DNA of 370 nt from a phage. Under the pieces are notes generated by a model that saw nothing but the letters and a program-made list of their open reading frames with translations, was not told the origin of the DNA and did not search any database. Made by a program: the position numbers and the translations under genes. Below are positions 1 through 370 of this stretch, piece by piece. The number at the start of each line of letters is the position of its first letter. Positions within the stretch are counted from its first letter, which is position 1. The stretch is from the sequence record BH153095.1. One strand, written 5' to 3'.

Positions 1-129
1 GAACGAGAGACAGTATTACTTGTCCTTGGGTCCCATGGAGAGCTTGGACTAAAACGTTAAGTCGTTGTTTACGATGTAAACATCCAAAGGTCATATGTGG
101 TTGGACTAGTGCTTGTGCTATTAATTTAA
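1..129 (+). pseudogene. Coding-like remnant in + frame 1, interrupted by in-frame TAA at 58-60 and 127-129; product unknown. Alternative reading: 3' end of a CDS terminating at 58-60.
   Basis: Hand count over codons 1-43 of frame 1: first positions about 67% GC (G 18, C 11, A 6, T 8), second positions about 49% T, third positions about 70% A/T. Translation ERETVLLVLGSHGELGLKR*VVVYDVNIQRSYVVGLVLVLLI* has protein-like composition, whereas + frame 3 over the same span is Cys/Trp/Arg-rich as expected for an off-frame reading. No start codon context, no homology check possible here. Confidence 0.2.
66..82. repeat. Perfect inverted repeat, 7-bp arms with 3-bp spacer (TGTTTAC-GAT-GTAAACA); candidate protein-binding dyad or short AT-rich hairpin, function unknown
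   Basis: Arms 66-72 (tgtttac) and 76-82 (gtaaaca) are exact reverse complements. Lies 6 nt after the frame-1 TAA at 58-60. Not followed by a T-run and the stem is AT-rich with a 3-nt loop, so not an intrinsic terminator. The existence of the repeat is certain; the confidence given refers to it being functional. Confidence 0.4.
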
Positions 130-204
130 CTATCTTAGGATACTAGAGAGGGCACAAAAATACCTTGTAATGTGGCCTACGTATAACAAACTTAGGAAGT
201 TTAA

Positions 205-339
205 ATTGTAATAATTCTATTGTCCAGTGCCAGGGAAATAGTATTTGAAGAGCCAACTGGGATAAAACCAGTTCTTACGGTCTACATAGTTGAAGAACTC
301 ATATCTATTGGAGACCTATTTTGTTGGTTGCCCCGCTAA
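205..339 (+). CDS. Hypothetical small ORF (up to 44 codons, frame 1) with unsupported start; product unknown
   Basis: Stop-free from 205 to 336 in the same frame as the period-3 signal (first-position GC about 61% across 247-315). Ends TAA 337-339, followed immediately by in-frame TAG 340-342 and TAA 343-345. Only canonical start is TTG 220-222, with no Shine-Dalgarno upstream; AGGAAG at 194-199 precedes ATT 205, a rare start codon. ORF length is within chance expectation for 38% GC sequence. Confidence 0.15.
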   Translation: MVIILLSSAREIVFEEPTGIKPVLTVYIVEELISIGDLFCWLPR

Positions 340-370
340 TAGTAAACACTAGGTATGTGCTTGTGGTAAA

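Follow-up and report, generated by a model that had tools for sequence, protein, structure and literature searches.

Three-base periodicity in a 370-base phage window that matches gene 7 of RB49 in reverse letter order

Introduction

Three-base periodicity in a stretch of phage DNA whose frames are all interrupted raises the question of what, if anything, is encoded there. The window analyzed here is the whole stretch of DNA under study, 370 bases with a G+C content of 38%, and makes up the entire source record. The first-pass annotation reported a coding-like base composition in forward frame 1, with G favored at the first codon position, T at the second, and A at the third (G1/T2/A3), together with ten in-frame TAA and TAG codons and no TGA. 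Its core inference was that such periodicity stems from protein-coding sequence, and three readings were offered in order of preference: a pseudogene or decayed gene fragment, a gene in which TAA and TAG are translated as sense codons, and a chance effect in non-coding DNA. The core inference was borne out by the match to gene 7 of Escherichia phage RB49 described below, and the three readings are weighed against that match.

Three-base periodicity of the window

The earlier hand counts over the 123 codons of frame 1 were exact on recounting, with G 41, C 23, A 28, and T 31 at position 1, T 50, A 35, G 20, and C 18 at position 2, and A 50, T 33, G 22, and C 18 at position 3. The rough chi-square of about 23 that had been derived from them was recomputed as 23.0 on 6 d.f. 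(p = 0.0008), and this value was reached in 3 of 5000 dinucleotide-preserving shuffles (0.06%). The Fourier power at period 3 was 3.00 compared with 0.71 ± 0.41 in the shuffles, 0.03% of which attained 3.00, and none of the other periods tested by Fourier analysis was raised to near the period-3 level. The period-3 observation is genuine and not a chance effect.

The chi-square was nearly equal in the three phases (23.0, 21.6, and 21.8), indicating that the statistic displays a period and not a frame, a strand, or a reading direction. Indeed, the period-3 or codon-position statistic is by construction unchanged when a sequence is complemented or reversed.

Along the window, the signal was strong at positions 1-129 (chi-square 25.0) and present at 247-315 (chi-square 12.9). 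It had been described as absent from 130-246 and 316-370, which proved to be only partly right. At 130-246, the signal is weak (chi-square 6.6, p = 0.36) and runs in the same direction as elsewhere; this stretch is coding like the rest, and its weakness is a local fluctuation of amplitude. At 316-369, the frame-1 pattern is lost as described, and a different pattern takes its place (chi-square 11.4), with T at 11 of the 18 frame-1 first positions.

Searches of the window in its given orientation

As written, the window offers little to translate. Each of the six ordinary frames holds 4-10 stops, and the only ordinary ORFs are three of 20-39 aa. With the window as written as the query, blastn gave no match on either strand among 50,697 phage records, and the sole match among 72,556 plasmids was at chance level (E = 0.3), an exact 23-base identity between the A+T-rich positions 199-221 and the Candidatus Stammera capleta plasmid CP144833.1. 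Five translations, which represent four of the six ordinary frames and include frame 1 with Gln and with X at its stops, gave nothing credible in Pfam, where the best match, DUF5317, had an E value of 0.05 and 14 bits against a cut-off of 25. When the ten stops of frame 1 were read as Gln, no relative was found at E ≤ 10 among 5.8 billion proteins. In addition, a forward 30-base stretch occurred on neither strand in IMG/VR, the JGI metagenomes, or the GTDB species genomes.

The first-pass annotation had named three outcomes that would speak against frame 1, namely an unremarkable shuffle result, a lack of homology, and flanks in which the frame does not continue. The shuffle result was far from unremarkable; neither homology nor a continuation of frame 1 was found, the search for homology having covered frame 1 under the standard and the TAA/TAG-sense codes and, in Pfam, three further frames that are termed forward in this analysis.

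A source of only 370 bases also raised the reading of the window as a structured non-coding or viroid-like RNA, with which its length, in the viroid range, would agree. Searching for tRNA and tmRNA genes in the window gave none, and Rfam at E ≤ 10 returned a single sub-threshold match, which might be counted in favor of this reading: the sul1 RNA motif at 218-278 on the minus strand (E = 0.17), with 19.9 bits against a gathering score of 36.2. In mirrored coding sequence, which the window is shown below to match, a sul1 match is meaningless, and it is taken as chance. The folding energies of the two strands were no different from those of shuffles (z = -0.37 and +0.67), and the probability of a structured RNA is negligible. 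A eukaryotic split gene was considered as well, on account of GTATGT- and GTTAAGT-like motifs noticed by eye at 354 and 56, and was dropped since the mirrored match explains every base.

Identification of RB49 gene 7 in the mirrored reading

Because the periodicity statistic is blind to direction, the window was also translated after plain reversal and after plain complementation. Past two stops at its start, frame 1 of the plain reverse runs on for 112 codons without interruption, and it is rich in G at position 1, in A at position 2, and in T at position 3 (G1/A2/T3), as is usual for genes in A+T-rich genomes. In a search of all PDB chains, the 112-aa translation matched the baseplate wedge protein gp7, with E values of 1.4e-29 for the gp7 chain of PDB 9f4a (residues 535-637 of 1032) and 5.4e-26 for phage T4 gp7 in PDB 5hx2 (residues 535-635).

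At the nucleotide level, the reversed window matched 181 phage records by blastn, and all of the matches listed fall in a gene whose annotation is baseplate wedge subunit or initiator. The best match was Escherichia phage RB49 (AY343333.1 / NC_005066.1), with 99.2% identity over query positions 1-370, 647 bits, and an E value of 0. It lies at 71268-71635 on the + strand of NC_005066.1, inside the gene 7 CDS at 69718-72804 (NP_891709.1, RB49p138), and extends from the third position of codon 517 to the first position of codon 640, in a gp7 of 1028 aa. By tblastn, 100% identity over 106 aa was obtained in at least 42 Krischvirus records.

The four possible readings of the window were separated clearly by local alignment to the RB49 locus, which scored 721 for the reverse compared with 24 for the forward sequence, 20 for the reverse complement, and 25 for the complement. 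Once the window was reversed, 367 of the 368 aligned bases were identical to RB49, and the window carries the RB49 allele at every site that varies among the Krischvirus genomes Whisky, JSE, Ec_Makalu_003, and OZ035808. As would be expected of a mirror copy, near-identity appeared only in the reversed, uncomplemented reading and in neither the forward nor the reverse-complement sequence. Similarity to gp7 and a collinear match inside the annotated gene 7 were likewise obtained after reversal only; none of the as-written frames searched matches gp7, and no T4-type gp7 gene of the Straboviridae can be read 5' to 3' on either given strand.

The composition of the gene accounts for the pattern that had been noticed in frame 1. 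In the recovered frame of 106 codons, G stands at position 1 in 39, A at position 2 in 45, and T at position 3 in 46; for the 968 bases around it in RB49 gene 7, the corresponding numbers are 99, 140, and 128 of 322. Mirroring maps codon positions 1, 2, and 3 of the gene to frame-1 positions 1, 3, and 2, so that the G1/A2/T3 pattern of the gene is read as the observed G1/T2/A3.

Exact words of 24 to 33 bases in the natural orientation, with and without the insertions described below, were absent from IMG/VR and the JGI metagenomes. Krischviruses identical to RB49 at the 24-30-base gene 7 words seem to be unrepresented in these two collections.

A further open frame was found in the non-reversed complement, in which frame 2 (window positions 2-370) is stop-free for 123 codons, with about 7 stops expected from composition. 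This frame is antisense to gene 7 and in register with it, and the same frame in RB49 is open for 144 codons (locus L001, 254-685) because the codons TTA, CTA, and TCA are absent between 251 and 686 of that locus; the fragment is poor in Leu and Ser residues. As a candidate antisense gene, the frame gave sub-threshold Pfam matches (zf-P11, E = 0.011) and was set aside as what looks like an ordinary fluctuation.

Differences from RB49 and shifts of coding phase

The window consists of three mirrored segments of gene 7, which are separated by two 1-base insertions, and one substitution (Table 1). None of the three differences is shared by RB49 or by Whisky, JSE, Ec_Makalu_003, and OZ035808, which makes them private to the window.

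Table 1. Mirrored segments of RB49 gene 7 in the window and differences from RB49
Feature	Window position	RB49 counterpart or change	Evidence
Mirror of RB49 gene 7	1..318	NC_005066.1 71318-71635	Alignment, tblastn, PDB matches, codon-position composition
Substitution	35..35	A here, T in RB49; GTT to GTA in gene orientation, synonymous (Val)	Alignment
1-base insertion	319..322	TTTT here, TTT in RB49 and four relatives; coding phase shifted	Alignment
Mirror of RB49 71307-71314	323..330	Part of codons 530-533, P-L-V-V; second phase	Alignment
1-base insertion	331..334	CCCC here, CCC in RB49 and four relatives	Alignment
Mirror of RB49 71268-71303	335..370	Codon 517 (third base) through codon 529 (first two bases), NGVRVWITNDNR; third phase	Alignment, reverse-frame translation, T-rich frame-1 first positions

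The longest segment covers the last two bases of codon 534, the codons up to 639, and the first base of codon 640, and its period-3 signal is in phase with frame 1. Read from window position 319 down to 2, the sequence translates as YPEVIYTQEVDTSGILDQ...VPWVPVHYDREQ, with its tblastn match at record positions 71317-71634. The short middle segment is read in reverse frame 3 as ...APLVV..., and the remaining one in reverse frame 2, which starts NGVRVWITNDNRP, the RB49 protein reading ...RRNGVRVWITNDNRPLVVYPEV... there.

The two +1 insertions lie 12 bases apart and add up to a net +2 shift, by which the frame is not restored and an uninterrupted gp7 reading frame is precluded; when the frame of the gene is kept through the insertions, a stop follows after 47 codons. 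Since the phase is shifted twice, the frame-1 pattern is lost beyond about position 316, and beyond 334 the T-rich third position of the gene lands on frame-1 position 1.

The insertions in homopolymers and the substitution together amount to a divergence of 0.8% and resemble read errors or planted changes. The product of T4 gene 7 is an essential structural protein, and given that the net +2 shift would truncate gp7, a viable phage with these insertions is unlikely. It is very improbable that the natural-orientation fragment derives from a real RB49-like population with two +1 insertions in this essential gene; if it did, the population might be a defective variant, or slippage during translation or transcription at the C and T runs might rescue it.

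Frame-1 stop codons and the earlier readings

The list of frame-1 stops in the first-pass annotation was exact: TAA at 58, 127, 184, 202, 337, 343, and 367, TAG at 136, 193, and 340, and no TGA. From the position-specific base frequencies, 7.2 stops are expected (TAA 3.6, TAG 1.6, TGA 2.05) and 10 are observed, with a probability of about 0.13 for zero TGA. The number of stops is close to the off-frame expectation, and the lack of TGA is unremarkable. Seven of the ten stops lie within positions 2-319, which in natural letter order form the uninterrupted 106-codon match to gp7. This region is 100% identical in protein to an intact gp7, and the stops in it are therefore not mutations; they arise since frame 1 as written is no reading frame of anything. 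The consecutive frame-1 codons TAA TAG TAA at 337-345 resemble the end of a gene, a coincidental look because they mirror, out of phase, AAT GAT AAT (Asn-Asp-Asn, gp7 codons 526-528).

These observations bear directly on the reading that had been preferred, a pseudogene or decayed fragment in + frame 1 whose ten TAA and TAG codons are accumulated nonsense mutations. The periodicity in phase with frame 1 and the two frame-breaking insertions relative to an intact relative would fit a decayed gene; however, the disruptions of the mirrored gene are those homopolymer insertions and include none of the ten listed stops, seven of which fall in sequence that is fully gp7-identical in natural order, and the number of stops is that expected off frame. 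A homolog in the same direction is also missing: frame 1 has no relative with Gln at its stops and matches no Pfam family, whether Gln or X is placed there, and the forward and reverse-complement sequences match no phage record and give background scores against RB49. A pseudogene in frame 1 is extremely unlikely.

The second reading took TAA and TAG as sense codons and TGA as the sole stop, as in table 6-like codes of ciliates and a few other lineages. Frame 1 contains no TGA and under table 6 is open throughout, but frame 2 and reverse-complement frame 3 also contain none, and the remaining frames contain 1-2. With several frames open under table 6 and 4 TGAs on the forward strand, such openness is uninformative, and the probability of zero TGA given above points the same way. 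The Gln-substituted translation of frame 1 has neither a homolog nor a Pfam family, so that there is no relative with conserved Gln, Glu, or Tyr at the TAA and TAG positions, and the RB49 match accounts for the entire sequence. A reassigned code is so improbable that it can nearly be disregarded.

Chance periodicity in non-coding DNA, the last of the three, is in keeping with the lack of an ORF, apart from the three short ones, in the six ordinary frames and with nothing further. It is ruled out by the shuffles, of which 0.06% and 0.03% reached the observed chi-square and Fourier power, and by the RB49 match, which demonstrates that the sequence comes from a coding gene; its probability is vanishingly small.

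Origin and meaning of the reversal

The explanation that best accommodates the data, with a probability of about 0.97, is that the window is an internal piece of RB49 gene 7 in reverse letter order, uncomplemented, and that it is not a biological sequence as oriented. The natural piece comprises 368 bases of gene 7 of RB49, a T4-like Krischvirus, with the three private changes added. Reversal preserves the base composition and the three-base periodicity of codon usage while turning G1/A2/T3 into G1/T2/A3, and it destroys the open reading frame, leaving stops to occur at the off-frame rate.

To our knowledge, replication, transcription, reverse transcription, inversion, and recombination all give antiparallel complements and never parallel mirror copies. 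Since copying yields antiparallel complements only, the reversal was presumably made in silico, whether on purpose, to serve as a mirrored control, or through a bug that reversed the sequence instead of reverse-complementing it. Reversal as a property of the physical molecule is excluded for practical purposes by the way in which nucleic acids are copied, and the sequence as written was absent from the collections searched. In its natural orientation, the window is an already known and long-annotated gene; as written, it is a member of no biological family.

The value of the case is chiefly methodological, and the window holds no new biology. Period-3 signal and codon-position heterogeneity are invariant to reversal, complementation, and phase, and a strong signal without an ORF therefore calls for a check of the reversed and complemented sequence before a pseudogene or an alternative code is invoked. 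If the reversal was not deliberate, it would indicate an orientation bug upstream.

Comparison with known systems

Stop-codon reassignment of the table 6 type and its relatives shares a single trait with the window, namely a frame 1 with TAA and TAG and without TGA. It differs in that the window lacks homology support, has other frames that are equally open, and is otherwise fully explained.

The closest natural counterpart is RB49 gene 7 itself, which encodes the baseplate wedge subunit or wedge initiator gp7 and agrees with the window in 367 of 368 bases after reversal. The window differs from it in being reversed and in carrying an extra T in the run at 319-322, an extra C in the run at 331-334, and the synonymous change of T to A at 35. 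T4 gp7 (PDB 5hx2, 5iv5, and 5iv7) and the gp7 of 9f4a contain this segment from the interior of the wedge protein, at residues 535-637 of chains of 1032 aa, although here the match is at the protein level only, with about half of the aligned residues identical by eye. PDB 5hx2 and 5iv5 give the structure of the T4 homolog of RB49 gene 7 as solved in the baseplate. The window corresponds to about 12% of the gp7 protein, and this solely in the mirror reading.

As an object in its own right, the window resembles the reversed-sequence decoys that are established practice in the benchmarking of gene finders and in the target-decoy searches of proteomics. A plain reversed decoy lacks the three additional changes carried by the window, and an accidental reverse-without-complement step is an equally possible origin. 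In reversed decoys, composition, length, k-mer symmetry classes, and codon periodicity are kept, whereas ORFs and homology are abolished, and the same combination is found in the window.
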